Positions 1 through 11,092 are shown, counted from the first letter of the stretch. The stretch is DNA of 64,000 bases from Candidatus Magasanikiibacteriota bacterium (GCA_041675185.1 JBAYUH010000002.1:1052-65051), one strand, 5' to 3'. Translations and numbers: made by a program. The notes: generated by a model from the sequence alone, not told the origin.

Positions 1-601
1 TCCCGAAATAACCGAAAAAATACAAGATGCACCACCAAGAGTAAAAACCGCCAAAAAATACAAAGAGGACAATTTACTAGTCTTTATTAGAAAGTCTGGA
101 AATCTTTATTCCAGAAGTATTAATAATGAAAATAACAAAATTATTGAACATGCAAATTTTGCTGACGTTTTGGAAATGATCAAATGTAAATACGAAGAAA
201 AAAGACAAGATTTATCCGAAACATTTTGGGAGCAATATGTGCAAATTCGTGATCACAATGACAAAGCTAATATACCAACCGGTGAAAATAGTATCGAAAG
301 ACAATCTCTAAATGTTTTACAAGGTTTTGATAGTAATCCACCAGCTAATTTCAATCGGTATCGAAAATTTTTATCTACTCTTTTGGAAGATGCGGCAGAT
401 TATCAAACTCTATCTAAATATACAATGCGTAGAATTGCCAACCTAGATTTTTCTACTAAAAAAGATAAAGAAATAGAAGCAACTAAAAAAGAACTAGATA
501 ATATGATGTTTGAACTTGGTGGAGATAATTATTTAGATGAAATAAAGAAAAAAGGTGATCCACAAAAAGAAGTAATTATTGCGATTGAAAACATAAAATA
601 A
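1..601 (+). CDS. 3' part of a hypothetical protein. The ORF is open to the window's left edge and its stop abuts the start of the downstream methyltransferase
   Basis: Frame 2 is open from position 2 with no stop until 599-601 (TAA). The next gene's ATG is at 603, which implies translational coupling. No recognisable motif. Confidence 0.45.
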   Translation, partial: PEITEKIQDAPPRVKTAKKYKEDNLLVFIRKSGNLYSRSINNENNKIIEHANFADVLEMIKCKYEEKRQDLSETFWEQYVQIRDHNDKANIPTGENSIERQSLNVLQGFDSNPPANFNRYRKFLSTLLEDAADYQTLSKYTMRRIANLDFSTKKDKEIEATKKELDNMMFELGGDNYLDEIKKKGDPQKEVIIAIENIK

Positions 602-602
602 T

Positions 603-3600
603 ATGCCAAAACAGATATTGCAAGACATTATAAACGATTTTTCCTTAGAAAAATTTAATTCTTTTTTTCGTGAAAAATCTGATAAATATAGAGATTTAGA
701 TGAAAGACTATCCAAATATGACAAGGATATTTTTTCTAATTCTACCCGTCTAGGTGTCATAGATTTTGGCGGTCGTACCAAAGATGTGGCTGTAATAGCT
801 GTACAAGTAGCAAAAGATTTAACTGAAAGAACTAGTAAAAAAGCCCAATATGATTTTGCCAAAAATTTATTAAAGCAAGAAGATAAATATGAAGCCGGCA
901 TATTTATTTTTTATGACACAACTGGTAATTTTCGTTTTTCGTTAATTTATCCACAATACCAAGGTAAAAATAGAGTTTGGAATAATTTTAAAAGATTTAC
1001 TCATTTTGTAAGCAAAAAATTGACCAATAAAACTTTTATTACACAGATTGGTAATGGTAATTTTGAAAACATAAATACATTGAAAGAATCATTTAGTGTA
1101 GAAAAAGTTACTAAGGAATTTTTTGCAAACTATAAAAAACTATTTGATAATTTAACAGCACATTTAAACAGTGATGCCTATTTCGACAATTTCGCTAGAA
1201 AAAATGGAATAGATTTAAATATTTTTGCCAAGAAAATTTTGGGTCAAATTGTATTTATTTATTTTTTACAAAAAAGAGGTTGGTTGGGTGCTGAAAAAAA
1301 TAAGCCAGTCGATACTGGTACTATTACCTTTTTAAGAGATCTTTATAATAAATGTGAATCTGATAACAAAAATTATTTTAATGATGTTTTAGAATATTTA
1401 TTCTATGATGCTCTAAACAAAAGACCAGAAAAAATAATTGGTTTTTATAGAGAATATTTTGATTGTCAAATTCCATTTTTAAATGGTGGTTTGTTTGAAC
1501 CGATAAATAATTATAATTGGAAACAAGAATTTTTAAATATTCCAAATAAAATTTTTTCTAACAAGCAAGAAAATGGAATTTTGGATATTTTTGACCAGTA
1601 CAACTTTACTATAGATGAAAATGACAACAGTGATCAAGAAGTGTCTGTTGACCCTGAGATGCTTGGAAAAGTATTTGAAAATTTATTACCAGAAAATATT
1701 CGTAAAGGTCAAGGCGCTTTTTATACACCACGAGAAATAGTTCATTACATGTGTAAAGAAAGTCTTATAAACTATCTTACTAATGAACTTGGTGCAAATG
1801 AAAAGACTGTACGTGATTTTTATGAATGGGATACCTCACCCTTAGACCATTCTGATTTAGAAAATGATGAAAAGGCACAGAAAAAAGTGTTTACATATTG
1901 GGTTTCTGAATTTGATGAATTAATGCCAAAAATGAAGACAGCGTTGCAAAATATAAAGATTGTGGACCCAGCTTGTGGTTCCGGTGCTTTTCTTATTGGC
2001 ATGTTGCAAGAAATTTTAATGTTAAGACATAAAATAAGCATGATATTAGATGAAAAATTTTCAGGCTATGAAGTAAAAAAAGACACAATTCAGAATTGTA
2101 TTTATGGCGTGGATATTGATCCTGGCGCAGTAGATATTGCTAAACTAAGATTATGGCTATCTATTGTGGTAGAACATGATATATCTGAAATAGAACCGCT
2201 ACCAAATTTAGATTATAAAATAATGCAAGGTAATAGTTTGTTAGAAAATTTGATTATTGGTGATAGTGTTATTTCTCTAAATCTTGATGGTAACAAAAAA
2301 ATAGATGGCAGGACAAAGGAGATGAAAAATCTTTTTGACACAAACGATCAAAGTAGAATGACTTTATTTACAGATGAAAAAGCAGTTGCATCTTCCGTAG
2401 ATCAATTAGAAAAACTTCATTCAGTTTTTTTTACTGAGAGCGATCCAGATAAAAAGAAAATTTTAAAAACAAAAATAGACAGCAAAGAAATTGAATTGGT
2501 AGAAAATGCTTGTAAAAATGAAATCACCATATTAGACAATAGAATAAAAAAAGATTTTGAAGATAAAAAGAAATTGCAAAAATATACTGAACAAATTTTG
2601 AATATTAAAAAAGTTTTAAATCAGTTAAAGAAAGATGGGGTTAGACCTTTTTTTCCATGGCATTTACATTTTAGCGATGTTTTCAAAGAAAAAGGTGGGT
2701 TTGATGTGGTAATTGGAAATCCACCATATGGATTTAGGGATGTTTTAACGAATGAAGAGAAAATATATTTTAGAAAAATTGAAAATATCGAATTTAGTAG
2801 TGGTGATGTCGCAGAGCTTTTTTGCAAAAAATCCTTTGATAATTTAGTTGTTAAAAGTGGTATTCTATCATTTATAATCCCCAAAAAATGTACCTATGGT
2901 GATTCATGGGATGGTTGGCGTGTTAATTATTTCCAAAAATATGATCTTCACTTTATTTTAGATTCTGGCAAAGCATTCGATCGAGTTTTACTAGAACAAA
3001 CCGCCTTTGGTCTTGCCAAAAGAAACCAAAGTGGCGATATTCAACTGTGTTTTTTAGATAACAAAATGGACAAAATACATTTATTTGCAAGATCATTAAA
3101 AGAAAAAATATTTAAATCAAACAATACTATACAAATTTATCTTGAATATTTTCCTCGAAGTATATTTGAAAAAATAGTCGCTAAATCAACACCTGAAACT
3201 TTAGTTACTGGAGATTTGGGATTAGGAATTGGTACAGAATTTTTTTCAGATGAAAAAACTGAATATAAATTATTAAAAGGAATAGATATTAGCAGGTGGC
3301 AAGTTCGAAGCCATCGCTTCCTAAAAAATAAAGAGAAACTAAATTGGAATAATGCTAAAAGATTTTTGAGAGCGAAAGTGTTGTGCCAAAGACTGATAGC
3401 TCACATCGAAAATCCAATCCCCCACATAAAAGTGACTGCTTGCTTCGATTCTGAAGGTATAATCATTACTAACACACTAACTGCTTTCAAACTTGATGCT
3501 TCAATAAATGAAAAATTTTGGCTAGGTTATTTAAACTCAAGTTTAGTGAACTGGTTTATATATAATTTTATTTATGGACGCGCAATAAGAGGGATGGATT

Positions 3601-3827
3601 TTTATAGTTTTTATATCGAACAAATTCCTATACCCAAAATTTCTAAAGACCAACAAACGAGTTTTATTGAAATTGTCGATAAAATTCTCACTATTACCTC
3701 AGCCACTAATTATGATCCTAAGAATACACCAATAAAACAAAAAGAATTGGAAAAACAAATTGATGAGCTAGTTTATAAACTCTACAACTTAACAGAAGAA
3801 GAAATAAAAACAATTGAAACGTGTTAA
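603..3827 (+). CDS. Eco57I/MmeI-family (Type IIG-like) restriction-modification enzyme / gamma-class N6-adenine DNA methyltransferase, 1074 aa
   Basis: Carries GQGAFYTPREIV, AdoMet motif I VDPACGSGAFLIGML, and motif IV FDVVIGNPPYG, in the order typical of gamma-class MTases. There is a ~330-aa N-terminal region and a ~370-aa C-terminal region that is a putative target-recognition domain. A coiled-coil insert lies between motifs I and IV. Confidence 0.8.
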   Translation: MPKQILQDIINDFSLEKFNSFFREKSDKYRDLDERLSKYDKDIFSNSTRLGVIDFGGRTKDVAVIAVQVAKDLTERTSKKAQYDFAKNLLKQEDKYEAGIFIFYDTTGNFRFSLIYPQYQGKNRVWNNFKRFTHFVSKKLTNKTFITQIGNGNFENINTLKESFSVEKVTKEFFANYKKLFDNLTAHLNSDAYFDNFARKNGIDLNIFAKKILGQIVFIYFLQKRGWLGAEKNKPVDTGTITFLRDLYNKCESDNKNYFNDVLEYLFYDALNKRPEKIIGFYREYFDCQIPFLNGGLFEPINNYNWKQEFLNIPNKIFSNKQENGILDIFDQYNFTIDENDNSDQEVSVDPEMLGKVFENLLPENIRKGQGAFYTPREIVHYMCKESLINYLTNELGANEKTVRDFYEWDTSPLDHSDLENDEKAQKKVFTYWVSEFDELMPKMKTALQNIKIVDPACGSGAFLIGMLQEILMLRHKISMILDEKFSGYEVKKDTIQNCIYGVDIDPGAVDIAKLRLWLSIVVEHDISEIEPLPNLDYKIMQGNSLLENLIIGDSVISLNLDGNKKIDGRTKEMKNLFDTNDQSRMTLFTDEKAVASSVDQLEKLHSVFFTESDPDKKKILKTKIDSKEIELVENACKNEITILDNRIKKDFEDKKKLQKYTEQILNIKKVLNQLKKDGVRPFFPWHLHFSDVFKEKGGFDVVIGNPPYGFRDVLTNEEKIYFRKIENIEFSSGDVAELFCKKSFDNLVVKSGILSFIIPKKCTYGDSWDGWRVNYFQKYDLHFILDSGKAFDRVLLEQTAFGLAKRNQSGDIQLCFLDNKMDKIHLFARSLKEKIFKSNNTIQIYLEYFPRSIFEKIVAKSTPETLVTGDLGLGIGTEFFSDEKTEYKLLKGIDISRWQVRSHRFLKNKEKLNWNNAKRFLRAKVLCQRLIAHIENPIPHIKVTACFDSEGIIITNTLTAFKLDASINEKFWLGYLNSSLVNWFIYNFIYGRAIRGMDFYSFYIEQIPIPKISKDQQTSFIEIVDKILTITSATNYDPKNTPIKQKELEKQIDELVYKLYNLTEEEIKTIETC

Positions 3828-3834
3828 TAATTTT

Positions 3835-4104
3835 ATGAGTAATTTTTCACCAAAACTTGAAGACGCAACAGACGAGAAATTGATGTACATGATTAACGAA
3901 TTAGATTTTCGGGTTGTTCCACTTGCTTCTGATGAGTTGACGAGGCGCCATTTGGGAAAATTAAGAGAAAATATTGAAAAATTTAACGAACAATCATCAA
4001 AACAGACAAATAAAATGATTCGATTGACCTGGGTAATTGTTTTGTTAACTGTTGTAATGGTTTTTGGCTTAGGTCTACAAATATATTTAGCAATTTATGA
4101 TTAA
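3835..4104 (+). CDS. Small hypothetical protein with a C-terminal transmembrane helix
   Basis: The ORF track start at 3814 is TTG, which sits inside the MTase gene's terminal codons, so the ATG at 3835 is more plausible. The hydrophobic C-terminus reads WVIVLLTVVMVFGLGLQIYLAIY. Confidence 0.4.
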   Translation: MSNFSPKLEDATDEKLMYMINELDFRVVPLASDELTRRHLGKLRENIEKFNEQSSKQTNKMIRLTWVIVLLTVVMVFGLGLQIYLAIYD

Positions 4105-4115
4105 CAAAATATACT

Positions 4116-4400
4116 ATGCCTAAAAAAGAAGATAATAAAACAATTGGTATTAGAATAAGATTTTGGACTAATGATTTACCCGGTAAAGTTGGGAAAGATC
4201 ACAAACAAACTCCATGCTGGAGTTGTGGTGTGGTTATTATAGAAGCTAATAGAACAAAAGGTATTTCATCAGATAGTGAGGTATTCCATTATGTTGATGA
4301 CATTCCAAGAGCTGTTAAAGAAGTAATGAAAAGAGCGAAAATTGCTGTAGTGGAAAATGTGGCTAGTACTGACAGAGCAAAAAAGAGGATAGGAAAATAA
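4116..4400 (+). CDS. Hypothetical 94-aa protein
   Basis: Clean ORF 11 nt after the previous gene. Contains a CWSCG pair and no known motif. Confidence 0.4.
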   Translation: MPKKEDNKTIGIRIRFWTNDLPGKVGKDHKQTPCWSCGVVIIEANRTKGISSDSEVFHYVDDIPRAVKEVMKRAKIAVVENVASTDRAKKRIGK

Positions 4401-4467
4401 TAAATACCTCAGTGGATGTCATTAGTGTTTATGAGTTTTTAAAAAAATATAATTTTATTTTTATATT

Positions 4468-5298
4468 ATGCAAAAACAATTTTTAGTAGGTAGATACTAT
4501 TTCGACACGCTTTTTCGGGATGAAGCTAATAAGTCATTTATTTCTGATTTAACAAAGAAGCCTACTTTTGAAGAAGGTAATATTGGATATGCTTTAGCAA
4601 ATACATCTTTCGAGAAGGTGGGTGAAAGTAAGGAAAGCTTTTTGAGAGGAACATTCGCTAAATTTAAAATTAAGGATTATTACAAAAAATATCTCAAAAA
4701 AGAAAATGGCTTTCAAGAATCCATAACGGATAACAAAGTTGAATCTCAAATTGAATTTTTTCTCCACCATCCGTCCCATCTTATTTTTATTGAAAAATCT
4801 TCACAAATAAGAGAAAATATTTTTAAAAATAAATTCATTAAAATTTACGAAAAAAATACCTCAGTCACCAAGCCAAATATGGGTCTTGATTTTTTATTTG
4901 ATGAAAAAGATGTATATGAAGAAATAAAAAGTTGGGATAGAATAGTTAAAGCTAAATTTAATGATTTACGACCATCTAACCCGCGAATGGATCCACACTT
5001 TGAAAAAATTGAGGAATTATTAAAGGAAACAAAAAGTGATCGTTCTAAATTAGAATTTAAAATTGATGATCCAGATAGCACTAATTCCCTCGATTCAGAA
5101 AGTGTACTTATTAAACAAGCTCTCGCTTTGTCATCATATGGATATGGGAATGCAAATTTTGATGGGTTTAAAGGTAAAAATACAACTAATATCAAAACAA
5201 AAAAGTTTGTTAAATCAGTAAAACTTGATTTTGATTCAGAAACTCCCTTTAGTGTTGTAATAGATTTTATTGAAAAAGACGAAAAAGGAGAAATGTGA
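4468..5298 (+). CDS. Hypothetical 276-aa protein
   Basis: Long ORF in AT-rich context, same strand and operon-like spacing. No recognisable motif. Confidence 0.5.
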   Translation: MQKQFLVGRYYFDTLFRDEANKSFISDLTKKPTFEEGNIGYALANTSFEKVGESKESFLRGTFAKFKIKDYYKKYLKKENGFQESITDNKVESQIEFFLHHPSHLIFIEKSSQIRENIFKNKFIKIYEKNTSVTKPNMGLDFLFDEKDVYEEIKSWDRIVKAKFNDLRPSNPRMDPHFEKIEELLKETKSDRSKLEFKIDDPDSTNSLDSESVLIKQALALSSYGYGNANFDGFKGKNTTNIKTKKFVKSVKLDFDSETPFSVVIDFIEKDEKGEM

Positions 5299-5311
5299 TA
5301 TAATACTAGAT

Positions 5312-5842
5312 ATGAGTACTAATCTTGAAAAAAAATTTGGGTTTTTCTCAAAGATGTTCCAATTTGGTATTGGTAATATTTTTATTTCCCTTGATTTTTT
5401 TGTTGCTTTTTTAGTACTAATACTTTTATTTATTGATAATCACTTTAATTTAAAAATTTTTATTTCGATTGCAGAGGAAAGAAATGCCTATGTTCAGGTT
5501 ATTTTAAGTGCTTCTTCGATTCTTTTTGCACTCATTACCACTGCATTATCTATTATTTTATCTTTCTCAACTAGTAACTTTATCAAATTTTTAAAGAAAA
5601 AAGACATGCTAGATAGCGTACTTTTCCCTTTTTGGTTAGGAAATGCAATTTATCTTTTTACTATAATACTTTCCATTGTATATCTTCTACTAGAGCCGGC
5701 GACATGGATAAAAATAATACCATTTTTATTCATGTTTATAATTTTTTTGTTTATATATGCTATTGGTATTACTTTTTCCTTATTACGAACCATAATTCGT
5801 ATTGGTGAATGGATAGCTCAAAATGATGAAGATTTGGCGTAA
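5312..5842 (+). CDS. Hypothetical polytopic membrane protein (~176 aa)
   Basis: ATG at 5312 (the track start at 5270 is TTG and overlaps the previous gene). At least four hydrophobic helices. Confidence 0.45.
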   Translation: MSTNLEKKFGFFSKMFQFGIGNIFISLDFFVAFLVLILLFIDNHFNLKIFISIAEERNAYVQVILSASSILFALITTALSIILSFSTSNFIKFLKKKDMLDSVLFPFWLGNAIYLFTIILSIVYLLLEPATWIKIIPFLFMFIIFLFIYAIGITFSLLRTIIRIGEWIAQNDEDLA

Positions 5843-5934
5843 CGTCTTATTCAGTTCGAACAAAACGATATGGCTACAGGGGACATTCTCCCCTTTAATT
5901 CCCCTCTGTCCCCTTCCGCTATATTGACGAACGC

Positions 5935-5944
5935 CCCCCCCCCC
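5935..5944. repeat. C10 homopolymer tract inside a C-rich non-coding spacer
   Basis: The sequence gaacgccccccccccttcccc is seen directly and is unusual in this AT-rich genome. Confidence 0.9.
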
Positions 5945-6200
5945 TTCCCCTCTTTAATAAAATGGTAAAAACAAAAGACGAAAAAATAATTTACATCTGA
6001 TAACAGCCGATATATGATTACGCTCCCCACTAACGTGCGGTCGCTCCATCCATATCCCGTATTCTCGGGACATCATATATCGGCGTACGTTAGCTGAAAT
6101 AAAATTTTTACACTTTTTGTTTTTTGTGATTGAGTGATTGGCGAGGGCGAGGCTTTTATCTCTTTTATTCCTATCTTCCCTACCAAAAAAGCACTTTCCT

Positions 6201-6230
6201 TTGCGCGTATCTTGCGCGTATCTTGCGCGA
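6201..6230 (+). repeat. 11-bp direct repeat ttgcgcgtatc x2.7 overlapping the -35 of the fic promoter (candidate operator)
   Basis: ttgcgcgtatc ttgcgcgtatc ttgcgcga, seen directly. Confidence 0.8.
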
Positions 6231-6251
6231 ACCGCTGTTTTGTGATATAAT
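6223..6251 (+). promoter_or_regulatory. Sigma70-like promoter for fic: -35 ttgcgc, 17-bp spacer, extended -10 tgtgatataat
   Basis: Consensus-like hexamers with a TG extension 28 nt upstream of the ATG at 6279. Confidence 0.55.
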
Positions 6252-6278
6252 ACTGGTGTAACTTAAAAAACATATAAT

Positions 6279-7334
6279 ATGTTTAATCCTAAATACAAGC
6301 ACACTAATAAAATTTTACTCGACCTCACTGCTATCGCCGAGGCCAAGGGCATTATTGACCGTGCCAAAATTTTACCACAACAAGAAATAAAACTACGTCG
6401 ACAAGCCATTATCCGTATGACCCACCACTCTACCGAGATTGAAGGCAATAAATTAAATATGGGGCAGGTGGAAGCACTTTATGCTAAGAAAAAAGTAGAT
6501 GCGCCAGACAGGGATATTTACGAAGTAAAAAATTATCTCAACGCTTTAAAATTTATTGAAAAAGTTGTAATTGAACATAAACCAATAACTAAAAAAATAA
6601 TTTTAAAAATACATAAATTAGTCGCTGATAAAACTTTGGCACCGCAATATTGTGGGCATTTCCGCCCAGGACCAATTTATGTGGTTCGTCGACGTTTGGG
6701 CATGCCACAAGAAACTCTATACACCGGACCAGAAGCCAAGCGCGTGCCACAGCTTATAACCGAATTTATCGCATGGCTTAAAGAAAGCGAAAAACAAGAA
6801 ATAAGTCCAGTACTTGTAGCTGCTATTGCTCACATGGAAATCGCCGCTATTCACCCTTTTAACGACGGCAACGGTCGTACAGCTCGCGCTTTAGCCACTT
6901 TGATTCTTTACCAGCGTGGATACGATTTTCGTCGATTATTTGCATTGGAAGATTTTTATAATACTGACCGACCATCATATTACAAGGCCATCAACTTGGG
7001 TAAAACTTATGATGAACGACGTACAGACATTACATCGTGGTTAGAATATTTCGTAAAAGGATTTAAGAAAGAAATTGATGAGGTAAAAAACAAAGTCTTG
7101 CCATTATCTACTCGCAATGTTGACGGGAAAATTAAATCACAAATTTATCTCACTCCAGAACAATTAAAAATTATTGACTTCTTAGATCAAGTTGGAAGAA
7201 TTGTTGTAAAAGATGTCGAGGACATTTTATCTTGTCCACGCCGATCTGCACAGTTACAATTACAAAAATTAAAGAAAATTAAAATGATTAAAGCGATGGG
7301 TAAAGGAAAAACCACCGCCTACATTGCCAACTAA
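6279..7334 (+). CDS. fic: Fic-family protein (AMPylase/adenylyltransferase), class II autoinhibited, with C-terminal winged-helix domain (SoFic-like)
   Basis: Canonical Fic motif HPFNDGNGRTARAL (HxFx[DE]GNGRxxR). The N-terminal inhibitory motif STEIEGN matches [ST]xxxE[GN]. Length is 351 aa, and GC is noticeably higher than in neighbouring genes. Confidence 0.85.
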   Translation: MFNPKYKHTNKILLDLTAIAEAKGIIDRAKILPQQEIKLRRQAIIRMTHHSTEIEGNKLNMGQVEALYAKKKVDAPDRDIYEVKNYLNALKFIEKVVIEHKPITKKIILKIHKLVADKTLAPQYCGHFRPGPIYVVRRRLGMPQETLYTGPEAKRVPQLITEFIAWLKESEKQEISPVLVAAIAHMEIAAIHPFNDGNGRTARALATLILYQRGYDFRRLFALEDFYNTDRPSYYKAINLGKTYDERRTDITSWLEYFVKGFKKEIDEVKNKVLPLSTRNVDGKIKSQIYLTPEQLKIIDFLDQVGRIVVKDVEDILSCPRRSAQLQLQKLKKIKMIKAMGKGKTTAYIAN

Positions 7335-8763: not shown

Positions 8764-9531
8764 ATGAAAACACGAACAAGCATTTTATTATTTTCTTTTG
8801 TAGCAGGTATTACTTTATTAGGTGCTGGTTGTACCAACAACACTGATATTGTCATCCCTCCAGAAACAGCAACACAACCAACTGCTATTCAAAACAACCC
8901 AACACCACAACCAATAGTTAAACCATACATAAAAGTAATCTACCCAAATGGCAACGAAATATTTAACCCAGGACAAATCGTTACCATAAAATGGGATTCA
9001 GATGGCGTTGACAAAATCTATTTAAGTATGGTAAACGGAGGGAAAGAATTTGGACAAATCGCAGAAAACAGTATTGATGCCAGTCTCAAAGAATATACCT
9101 GGACAGTACCTGACAATTTCGCAGGAGTAGAGTCTGGATACAAAATATTTATTAGTAATAACTCTGTAAACGAAGATATTCGTGATTCTTCTAACGGAAC
9201 ATTTAGTATTAAATCTGCTCCAGTTGCTGTCCAACCATTCTTAAAATTAACAGCACCGACAGGCGATCAACAATTTAAAATTGGTCAGAAAGTAACTATC
9301 AGTTGGACATCCAGTGGTGTAAACAAAGTTTATCTTAGTCTTGTCAACGGCGGGAAAGAATTTGGACAGATCACAGAAAACGGTATTGATGCCTCACTTG
9401 GCAAATATGAATGGACTGTCCCAGACATGTCGGACTTGGGCACAACTGGTTACAAAATTTTCATAACCAACAATGAAGCAGTCAATGAATTACGCGACTC
9501 ATCTTCTGTATCATTTTCGATTGTTAAATAA
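8764..9531 (+). CDS. Secreted lipoprotein with two tandem ~108-aa Ser/Thr-rich 'GPI-anchored/Kre9_KNH-like' (PF10342-type) domains
   Basis: Signal peptide plus lipobox LGAGC. There are two internal repeats, each beginning KIYLSMVNGGKEFGQI / KVYLSLVNGGKEFGQI and about 60% identical. Confidence 0.55.
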   Translation: MKTRTSILLFSFVAGITLLGAGCTNNTDIVIPPETATQPTAIQNNPTPQPIVKPYIKVIYPNGNEIFNPGQIVTIKWDSDGVDKIYLSMVNGGKEFGQIAENSIDASLKEYTWTVPDNFAGVESGYKIFISNNSVNEDIRDSSNGTFSIKSAPVAVQPFLKLTAPTGDQQFKIGQKVTISWTSSGVNKVYLSLVNGGKEFGQITENGIDASLGKYEWTVPDMSDLGTTGYKIFITNNEAVNELRDSSSVSFSIVK

Positions 9532-9577
9532 TACAATTGTATATTCATAAATCACCAATTCATAAACATAAAAATAT

Positions 9578-10204
9578 ATGAAAAAAATAATTTCACTGGC
9601 ATCACTATCATTATTTCTCTTACTTGGTTTTGGATGTCAAACTCAAAAACAAGAACAAAATACTACTCTACCACCCGCAGTCGAGGAATTACAAACTCAA
9701 ACAGTTTCTGAAAATAAAAAACAAAATACTAGTGAAACTACTAATAATCCAACAAAAGTTGGAGTCACTCTTTACAAAGGTTTATGGTTTGATATTCAAT
9801 ATCCACAAAATTTCAATGCAACACCAACAACACAAACTGATGAAGCATATTTCTTGTCTCCAGAAGGAAATGTAGAATTTTTTGTCTATTCTCCACTCTG
9901 GTCTGGAACTCCAAAAAATTATTTGACAATGGCTTCAAACGAAGAGTTGGTAAGTGAAAAAATTGAAGAAACAAAAGCAAGTCAACAACCTAGACAATAT
10001 GGCGACAAAATCACTCGTTGGGTTACTATCAAAGCCAAAGATGGTTCATACTATCGTTCATTTGTATCTATCAAAGAACAAGTCGATACAGGAAGTGAAT
10101 TACATCATGTATTTGGTATTAAGTACAAGGACAATACTTCTTATCAAAAATACAGAGATGATTATATTACTTTCAAAGAATCTCTACATCAATATTCTGA
10201 TTAG
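9578..10204 (+). CDS. Hypothetical lipoprotein
   Basis: Signal peptide with lipobox GFGC. No known motif. Confidence 0.45.
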   Translation: MKKIISLASLSLFLLLGFGCQTQKQEQNTTLPPAVEELQTQTVSENKKQNTSETTNNPTKVGVTLYKGLWFDIQYPQNFNATPTTQTDEAYFLSPEGNVEFFVYSPLWSGTPKNYLTMASNEELVSEKIEETKASQQPRQYGDKITRWVTIKAKDGSYYRSFVSIKEQVDTGSELHHVFGIKYKDNTSYQKYRDDYITFKESLHQYSD

Positions 10205-10276
10205 TAATATTAGACAAATCAAAAAAGCAACTACTAAGTTGCTTTTTTATTTTCAAATTTTATTGACTTAATGGGT

Positions 10277-11092
10277 TTAATGTTTAAACACTTTGACAAA
10301 CATCTTCCCCAAATATCCTACTACAAACAAACTAGTACCTGTCAAAATAATCATCGCACCAGATGGTAAATCAAGATAATAAGAAGCTATAAGACCAACA
10401 ATGACAATACTAATAGAAAACAAAATAGTCAAAAAAGTAAATATTTTGAAATTTCTAGCAAACATCTTGGCAATCGCACTTGGTGTGACAAGCAAAGCAC
10501 TGACCATAATAATACCTACGAGCTTGATACTAAGTACAATAGCAATAGCTGTAGATATATAAAGCAACAAATCATAAATCCAAGGATTAAGACCAGAGAG
10601 GTAGGCTCCACTTGGATCAAAAGTTACAAACAACATCTTGCGATAAAAAAAACTCAAAATGAAAAGAATGAAAATTCCTATAATCAATATAGACCACAAA
10701 TCCAAAGTATTGACTGTCAAAATATTTCCAAACAAATAACTAATAAGCTCTGGTTGATAACCTTGATAAAAATGAAGCAAGATAATACCAATAGCAATCC
10801 CTGTCGTAAACATAATAGCAATAGCCATGTCACTAGAAATATTTGTTTTCTTCTCAAGAAAATAAATTATAATAGCAATGACAACTGCCAAAACTACAGC
10901 TGTAGGAATTGGCGCCCAACCCAAAAGAACAGCAAGAGCAATTCCAGCCAAAGAAGCATGAGCGACACCATCACCAATGAAACTCATTTTTCTTGTTACT
11001 ACAAAAGTACCCAACCAGCCCAAAAGTACTGAAACAAAAGTACCAGCGAGTAAGGCTCTGATCATAAATGGATATTGTAAAAATTCTAGCAT
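10277..11092 (-). CDS. Metal (Zn/Mn) ABC transporter permease, ABC-3 family (ZnuB/MntB-like)
   Basis: A polytopic 271-aa protein with ABC-3 permease character, sitting in an operon with the ATPase, the substrate-binding protein and the Fur-family regulator. Confidence 0.7.
   Translation of the reverse strand: MLEFLQYPFMIRALLAGTFVSVLLGWLGTFVVTRKMSFIGDGVAHASLAGIALAVLLGWAPIPTAVVLAVVIAIIIYFLEKKTNISSDMAIAIMFTTGIAIGIILLHFYQGYQPELISYLFGNILTVNTLDLWSILIIGIFILFILSFFYRKMLFVTFDPSGAYLSGLNPWIYDLLLYISTAIAIVLSIKLVGIIMVSALLVTPSAIAKMFARNFKIFTFLTILFSISIVIVGLIASYYLDLPSGAMIILTGTSLFVVGYLGKMFVKVFKH

Follow-up and report, generated by a model that had tools for sequence, protein, structure and literature searches.

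A probable RexAB-like gene pair and two further, separately distributed units behind a restriction system in a Candidatus Magasanikiibacteriota bacterium

The stretch analysed here, referred to as the window, comprises 64,000 nucleotides (nt) of a Candidatus Magasanikiibacteriota bacterium (GCA_041675185.1 JBAYUH010000002.1:1052-65051) and carries four small genes, termed g1 to g4, at positions 3835-5842. These same-strand open reading frames (ORFs) directly 3' of a methylase gene (603-3827) had been noticed in a sequence-only reading of the window, and all four were found to be genuine and conserved. The region is best explained as the tail of a chromosomal defence island of the Candidate Phyla Radiation (CPR), in which three independent units are placed behind a two-gene restriction-modification system and the g3+g4 pair is a RexAB-like phage-exclusion module of the DUF4747/CarolAnn type. 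We consider this explanation probable.

The evidence for g3 comes from its family and its predicted fold. A search of 5.8 billion proteins yielded 8 close homologues of g3, and with a profile 310 relatives were obtained at 50% clustering. Precomputed annotation places g3 and all of the close homologues in PF15931 (DUF4747; PF15931.11, E ≤ 1e-5). The local PF15931.10 model of DUF4747 was matched by 20 of 74 g3-profile relatives with a best E value of 9e-14, and no other family was matched. Structure prediction followed by a Foldseek search, as had been proposed in the sequence-only reading, returned the two-domain RexA/RdgC fold. The AF2 model of g3 reached a predicted local distance difference test score (pLDDT) of 77 and a predicted template modelling score (pTM) of 0.73, and in the comparison with 350,542 PDB chains only Escherichia coli RdgC (2OWL) and lambda RexA (8TWQ) were found below 1e-3. 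RdgC was the top match (E 8.6e-5, probability 0.99) and thus, as judged from the model, would belong to the same fold family as g3; the value for lambda RexA was 7e-4. The RexA structure paper names RdgC, Iml3 and Chl4 as relatives of the RexA fold (PMC11077077). The Foldseek matches of g3 agree with the relatives named there. Chl4 has its human counterpart in CENP-N.

The second line of evidence is the constant pairing of g3 with a membrane protein gene. A g4 homologue of 171-176 amino acids (aa) is situated immediately 3' of every g3 relative examined (L001, L007, L008/L009, and L060; numbers with L denote the loci compared) and on the same strand. In these relatives the two overlapping frames share 8 nt (L001, L007, and L008) or 20 nt (L060), whereas in the window they are separated by 13 nt. 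Counting the window, the pair was found in five different neighbourhoods (window, L001, L007, L008, and L060; Table 1), and the g3 relatives with 38-40% identity are distributed over three different ones (L001-L006, L007, and L008/L009). The membrane assignments of the sequence-only reading held: g4 shows four hydropathy peaks and g1 a single C-terminal hydrophobic segment (residues ~59-89), and no transmembrane (TM) segment was predicted from hydropathy in either g2 or g3, which had been called soluble. At the same threshold four peaks were also obtained for the g4 homologues of L001, L007, and L008, for RexB and for CarolAnn gp43; the L060 protein shows three. Moreover, TM2 and TM3 are joined by a basic loop in g4 and most of its homologues, just as in RexB and CarolAnn gp43.

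Both features are known from characterised exclusion systems. A DUF4747 motif was detected by HHpred in lambda RexA, Sbash gp30, CarolAnn gp44, and Butters gp30, and the defining architecture of RexAB, Sbash 30/31, CarolAnn 44/43, and Butters 30/31 is a cytoplasmic DUF4747 protein together with a protein of four TM helices (PMC6426596, PMC6426606, PMC7542560). The g3+g4 pair resembles the CarolAnn, Sbash, and Butters systems in that the gene of a cytoplasmic DUF4747-related protein overlaps the next gene, which encodes a four-TM protein of 165-178 aa; the overlap amounts to 26 nt for CarolAnn gp44/gp43 and to 8-20 nt in the relatives of g3/g4. In addition, "DUF4747/CarolAnn" has been described as an immune operon often located 3' of restriction-modification operons (PMC13373217), which is also the position of g3/g4 in the window. 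The actinophage cytoplasmic proteins differ from g3 in their length (370 aa versus 276 aa) and show no similarity to it by hhalign. Furthermore, the CarolAnn-type systems are prophage-encoded and expressed in the lysogen (Gordonia phage CarolAnn, Mycobacterium phages Sbash and Butters), whereas the CPR pair is chromosomal and viral relatives were not found in IMG/VR.

With regard to lambda RexA and RexB (PF15969 and PF15968; PDB 8TWQ), sequence similarity to g3 and g4 is undetectable. The RexA and RexB models of Pfam and PADLOC matched none of g3, g4, and their homologues, although as controls the two collections recovered lambda RexA with 1e-97 and 9e-110 and lambda RexB with 8.5e-92 and 8.6e-61, respectively; the PADLOC models detect the lambda proteins only. 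Lambda RexB is about 30 aa shorter than g4, and the lambda rex genes lie in the prophage immunity region beside cI, whereas g3/g4 follow a restriction system in a chromosomal defence island of a CPR host. Local scans of g3 and g4 against Pfam, PADLOC, NCBIfam, and PHROGs gave nothing significant, and RexA was not retrieved in profile searches of PDB sequences.

Several observations weigh against a Rex-like assignment of the pair. The older PF15931.10 model and PADLOC did not match g3 itself. The alignment used for the AF2 prediction contained only 8 sequences, and the other four models were poor (pLDDT 46-60). By hhalign, g3 profiles of 8 and 74 sequences compared with lambda RexA and CarolAnn gp44, as well as the g4 profile compared with RexB and CarolAnn gp43, gave probabilities of less than 1%. 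No relatives of g3 were found in a pattern scan of IMG/VR. The context in the window is not that of a prophage, without a cI- or cro-like neighbour; neither an integrase nor a repressor is present among the window neighbours, so that the setting beside a cI-like repressor is lacking. Finally, Butters gp30 is largely functional without its membrane partner and the Rex mechanism is still debated (PMC7542560). Since fold and architecture match and a match in sequence is lacking, g3+g4 would be of the Rex-like/DUF4747 kind in predicted structure and in architecture, lying outside the lambda RexA/RexB sequence families.

Lambda RexAB and Sbash gp30/31 suggest, by analogy, how the pair could act. 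As a dimer that binds DNA non-specifically, g3 would sense an intermediate of phage replication or recombination. It might then switch on g4 through the basic TM2-TM3 loop of the latter, and g4 would depolarise the membrane, so that ATP falls and phage growth is aborted. Defence by the Sbash system requires the central cytoplasmic loop of gp31 (PMC6426596). Behind the upstream restriction system such a pair may form a second layer of defence. The effector step of g4 is the weakest part of this scheme, because the mechanism of Rex has been established only in part and Butters gp30 is to a large extent active on its own.

We considered whether g3 could instead be an RdgC-like housekeeping protein that binds DNA and modulates recombination, with g4 an unrelated membrane protein and the pair without a role in phage defence. 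RdgC is the top Foldseek match of g3, the context is non-prophage without viral relatives found in IMG/VR, and orphan RexA homologues occur outside prophages, a common ancestry with RdgC having been proposed (PMC11077077). However, the g3 subfamily is rare and patchy: besides the 8 close homologues among 5.8 billion proteins, a pattern scan of 185,579 GTDB species-representative genomes gave no g3 relative; the broad 74-sequence alignment was too divergent for a scan of this type. Moreover, g3 relatives are always paired with the same four-TM gene with overlapping frames, and the subfamily adjoins restriction-modification, RadC, Fic, and other defence-island genes. Because g3 is rare, patchy, obligately membrane-partnered, and placed among defence neighbours, a housekeeping role appears improbable.

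A further alternative is that g3+g4, possibly with g1, constitute a toxin-antitoxin-like module stabilising the restriction island, in which g4 or g1 would be a membrane toxin restrained by a soluble protein. A small membrane protein beside a soluble partner is typical of such modules, the RexA:RexB ratio governs toxicity in the Rex literature and Butters gp31 modulates gp30 (PMC7542560), and g1 is always tightly attached to mobile restriction operons. Yet no similarity to known toxin or antitoxin families was detected in Pfam, PADLOC, NCBIfam, and PHROGs, and we hold this alternative to be rather unlikely. As addiction and abortive infection are not mutually exclusive, it would be a variant of the RexAB-like explanation rather than an alternative to it.

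The RexAB-like explanation concerns g3+g4 only. The sequence-only reading had taken all four genes for a single module, and their co-occurrence was assessed by tblastn of g1 to g4 against 50 loci: in none of these were two or more of the units found together. All four genes occur elsewhere only in L056 and L057, which are assemblies of the same sequence with the identical arrangement. g1 and g2 are absent from all of the g3+g4 loci, the g2 loci are without g1, g3, and g4, and the 26 g1 loci are without g2, g3, and g4. Because g1, g2, and g3+g4 are each distributed separately, the four genes are three separate units, namely g1, g2, and g3+g4. The proposed combination of a membrane effector with a soluble sensor, as in defence and abortive-infection modules, thus fits g3+g4 but not the four genes together. 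Since the ORFs are conserved and none of the homologues is annotated with a housekeeping role, the objection which the sequence-only reading had itself foreseen did not arise.

One four-component defence system coupled to or co-transcribed with the restriction-modification genes, with g1 and g4 as membrane effectors and g2 and g3 as soluble sensors, is highly improbable in spite of the shared strand, the short gaps (7, 11, 67, and 13 nt) without a clear terminator between the genes, the location of all genes in one low-GC block (28.8% guanine plus cytosine versus 33.3% in the rest of the window), and the same arrangement in two other assemblies of the same sequence, since no other locus contains more than one of the three units and the overlaps proposed for the genes are not the supported starts. 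By the co-occurrence data this system is largely refuted.

The overlaps had been put forward as a sign of translational coupling; in this window neither of them is the best-supported start. For g1 a TTG codon (3814) overlapping the methylase stop is present, but it is unsupported. ATG 3835, 7 nt past the stop, is favoured: the homologues begin with a nearly invariant MSNFSPKLED, and the product of 89 aa was called in two independent assemblies. Likewise, the TTG at 5270 by which g4 would overlap g3 is present but unsupported, and ATG 5312, 13 nt after the g3 stop, is the most likely start. From there g4 comprises 176 aa compared with 171-175 aa in its homologues, and the same call was made in two other assemblies. 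The gaps listed above refer, in this order, to methylase/g1, g1/g2, g2/g3, and g3/g4. A terminator scan gave no convincing candidate between the four genes, and in a promoter scan the promoter-like matches were no commoner than in shuffled sequence; co-transcription of the four genes is therefore plausible.

Of the two remaining units, g1 is by far the more widespread. It has at least 172 homologue clusters with 55-79% identity across many CPR lineages, a few records being binned elsewhere. Its members are tail-anchored proteins of 87-90 aa with a nearly invariant N-terminus and PLASDELTRR motif. The cytoplasmic N-terminal domain of about 58 aa is acidic (isoelectric point (pI) 5.3) and is followed by the C-terminal anchor, after which a few homologues carry a cysteine-containing extension of about 50 aa. 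No family match was obtained for g1 in Pfam, PADLOC, NCBIfam, and PHROGs.

In 10 of the 14 contexts examined in detail (the window counted) a restriction-modification gene or operon is located immediately upstream of g1 (Table 1). The upstream neighbours are mostly ResIII, N6_N4_Mtase, SWI2_SNF2, N6_Mtase, Eco57I, type I S/R, type ISP, MutH-like, and GmrSD genes, and this placement spans restriction genes of types I, II, IIG/ISP, III, and IV. In the g1 loci L017-L049 the gene upstream, although unrelated, has its stop codon in most cases 4-8 nt before the ATG of g1, with the junction often reading TAAAATT-ATG. Distant lineages also have nearly the same first 30 nt of g1. Tight translational coupling may account for this, or else recombination at a conserved junction. 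Downstream of g1 the neighbours are variable and defence-like (HARE-HTH nucleases, KAP NTPase, AAA_14/DUF4143, NucS_C, DUF3800, and others).

Two of the g1 loci show a further arrangement. In L017 (5001-6007) and L022 (5001-6004) the g1 homologue overlaps the gene of a 247-248 aa HARE-HTH protein (Pfam) by 4 nt (ATGA). By eye, the C-terminal half of these proteins resembles a PD-(D/E)xK nuclease. In L017 a KAP-family NTPase follows the HARE-HTH protein. The HARE-HTH protein, which the window lacks, may be a recurrent g1 partner.

That g1 follows so many unrelated restriction genes at close range suggests a function linked to restriction operons in general. Our favoured guess is a membrane-tethered protein that serves these operons as an accessory or exclusion factor. 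We also considered a broader proposal, that g1 represents an unrecognised, widespread class of restriction-operon accessories of the CPR/Patescibacteria and g2 a third component of PLD-SNF2/methylase systems. This proposal is tentative, and we regard it as possible although unlikely.

For g2 16 homologues with 44-87% identity were found. In three other lineages (L011, L012/L013, and L051) g2 follows a PLD-SNF2 and MmeI-type methylase pair as it does in the window; the exceptions are L055, where it is situated after a Dcm/Vsr cluster, and L014, where it stands alone. g2 is thus co-inherited with the PLD-SNF2 and MmeI-type methylase pair. Pfam, PADLOC, NCBIfam, and PHROGs gave no significant match for g2, and no fold match was found. 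The defence-protein models of PADLOC-DB v2 matched neither g1 nor g2, and an all-against-all BLASTP comparison of the small neighbours of the g1 and g2 homologues revealed no shared extra partner. Nor does g2 have a counterpart in any described system. As a guess, g2 could be a nucleic-acid-binding accessory or regulator of the PLD-SNF2/methylase system.

The restriction system itself is only partly contained in the window. Bases 2-601 form an open frame that runs off the window start and ends with a stop at 599-601. The last 143 aa of this truncated ORF are 64% and 62% identical to the C-termini of PLDc_2/SNF2/Helicase_C proteins in L012 and L011, respectively, which precede methylases related to that of the window; in L056 the ORF at the upstream position, also cut, comprises at least 551 aa. 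Judged by these similarities, the upstream PLD-SNF2 protein is most probably the restriction partner of the methylase. What had been called the restriction-modification gene is one half, that for methylation and specificity, of an ATP-dependent restriction system made up of two genes, and the PLD-SNF2 and methylase pair is also present in L011, L012, and L051. The methylase matches Eco57I (1e-29), N6_Mtase, MmeI_Mtase, and TaqI_C in Pfam and REase_MTase_IIG (4e-113) in PADLOC.

Residues 1-170 of the methylase are 82% and 71% identical to the proteins of L012 (1804-5235) and L011 (2419-5982), respectively, whereas the remaining ~900 aa are 31% identical. This suggests a mosaic protein in which a conserved N-terminal module was joined to swapped methylase and specificity parts; the N-terminal module is perhaps the interface with the PLD-SNF2 partner. 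Type IIG/ISP enzymes and the DISARM proteins DrmMI/DrmD/DrmC are related to systems of PLD-SNF2 proteins and MmeI/Eco57I-type methylases. DISARM possesses DrmA and DrmB; since both are missing here, the upstream system is not DISARM. This PLD-SNF2 and methylase system forms the upstream context of the four genes and is the unit accompanied by g2.

Table 1. Features of the window and gene contexts of g3/g4 and g1 in other loci.
Locus	Feature	Position	Strand	Remarks
Window	PLD-SNF2 helicase/nuclease gene, 3' end	1..601	+	truncated by window start
Window	MmeI/Eco57I-type N6-adenine methylase	603..3827	+	1074 aa; TaqI_C specificity domain; type IIG-like
Window	g1	3835..4104	+	89 aa; tail-anchored: acidic cytoplasmic N-domain and one C-terminal TM helix
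Window	g2	4116..4400	+	94 aa; basic (pI 9.8), soluble; three beta-strands and two helices
Window	g3	4468..5298	+	276 aa; cytoplasmic; predicted RexA-like (DUF4747 superfamily, RexA/RdgC fold)
Window	g4	5312..5842	+	176 aa; four TM helices; RexB-like by size, topology, and position
Window	C-rich non-coding element with poly-C run	5866..6013		conserved; 3' boundary of variable cluster
Window	Fic-domain protein (SoFic-like)	6279..7334	+	Pfam Fic 1e-17; PADLOC SoFic 4.6e-52
L001-L006	g3/g4			after type III Mod/Res pair
L007	g3/g4			after RadC-related fragment
L008/L009	g3/g4			after RadC, methylase, and genes of no assigned function
L060	g3/g4			more distant g3 relative, E 4e-30
L017, L033, L035	g1			upstream gene: type III Res
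L022, L027	g1			upstream gene: MutH-like endonuclease with methylase
L028	g1			upstream gene: type I S subunit
L036	g1			upstream gene: type I R subunit
L030	g1			upstream gene: type ISP enzyme
L032	g1			upstream gene: N6_N4 methylase
L042	g1			upstream gene: GmrSD-HNH

The base composition changes at the end of the cluster. The GC content is 28.8% in positions 1-5842, comprising the restriction genes and the four-gene block, 41.5% in positions 5843-6278, and 33.3% in the remaining 58 kb, a contrast that is consistent with horizontally acquired island content. The neighbours in the window are restriction-modification, Fic, and housekeeping genes (GDT1, MscL, and an ABC transporter).

Downstream of g4 a C-rich non-coding element was identified. 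The copy in the window (5866-6013) is 76% identical to positions 6672-6827 of L012, and the element is present in six further metagenome loci (L061-L066). It comprises about 150 nt with the core ATGGCTACAGGGGnCATTCnCCCCTTTnnTTCCCCTCTGTCCCCTT followed by a run of 10-12 C, and four metagenome contigs terminate in this poly-C run. In the window, L062, and L065 it borders the variable defence genes on their 3' side and precedes conserved genes, Fic and others. A hairpin (ATGGC...GCCAT) can form on the + strand, which in the window copy includes a G.U pair; the z-score of the fold is -1.9 on the + strand versus -0.1 on the - strand. When the non-coding region downstream was scanned against Rfam, the only match was below threshold and at chance level. 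The element might mark the boundary of an island or a hotspot; a leader or a small RNA is also conceivable.

The Fic-domain protein is encoded at 6279-7334, just past the element. With this SoFic-like gene, defence-type genes continue on the other side of the element. In the syntenic locus L065 the element adjoins an ORF of 411 aa (9186-10421, - strand) that by eye resembles an ISL3-type transposase. A transposase-like ORF beside the element fits an insertion hotspot at this site.

CPR bacteria are largely without clustered regularly interspaced short palindromic repeats (CRISPR) and are thought to depend on restriction and abortive infection (PMC4742961). A report of a Rex-like pair in this phylum was not found in the literature. 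The Rex-like architecture itself is already known, and g3+g4 are new as a sequence-divergent pair of this kind; the g1 family is the more novel lead. If the assignment of g3+g4 is correct, the sensor-plus-channel architecture of RexAB/DUF4747 would extend into the CPR. Standard defence annotation misses the pair, as the PADLOC and Pfam models of RexA and RexB are blind to it. Its position behind the restriction genes matches the layered arrangement, restriction followed by abortive infection, that has been described for DUF4747/CarolAnn operons (PMC13373217). g1 and g2, for their part, are unannotated small proteins repeatedly attached to restriction operons, g1 being especially common. If g1 is indeed an accessory of these operons, it could couple restriction to the membrane, for instance by holding the enzymes where phage DNA enters the cell; alternatively, it may come into play once restriction has failed, as a membrane effector or an exclusion factor.

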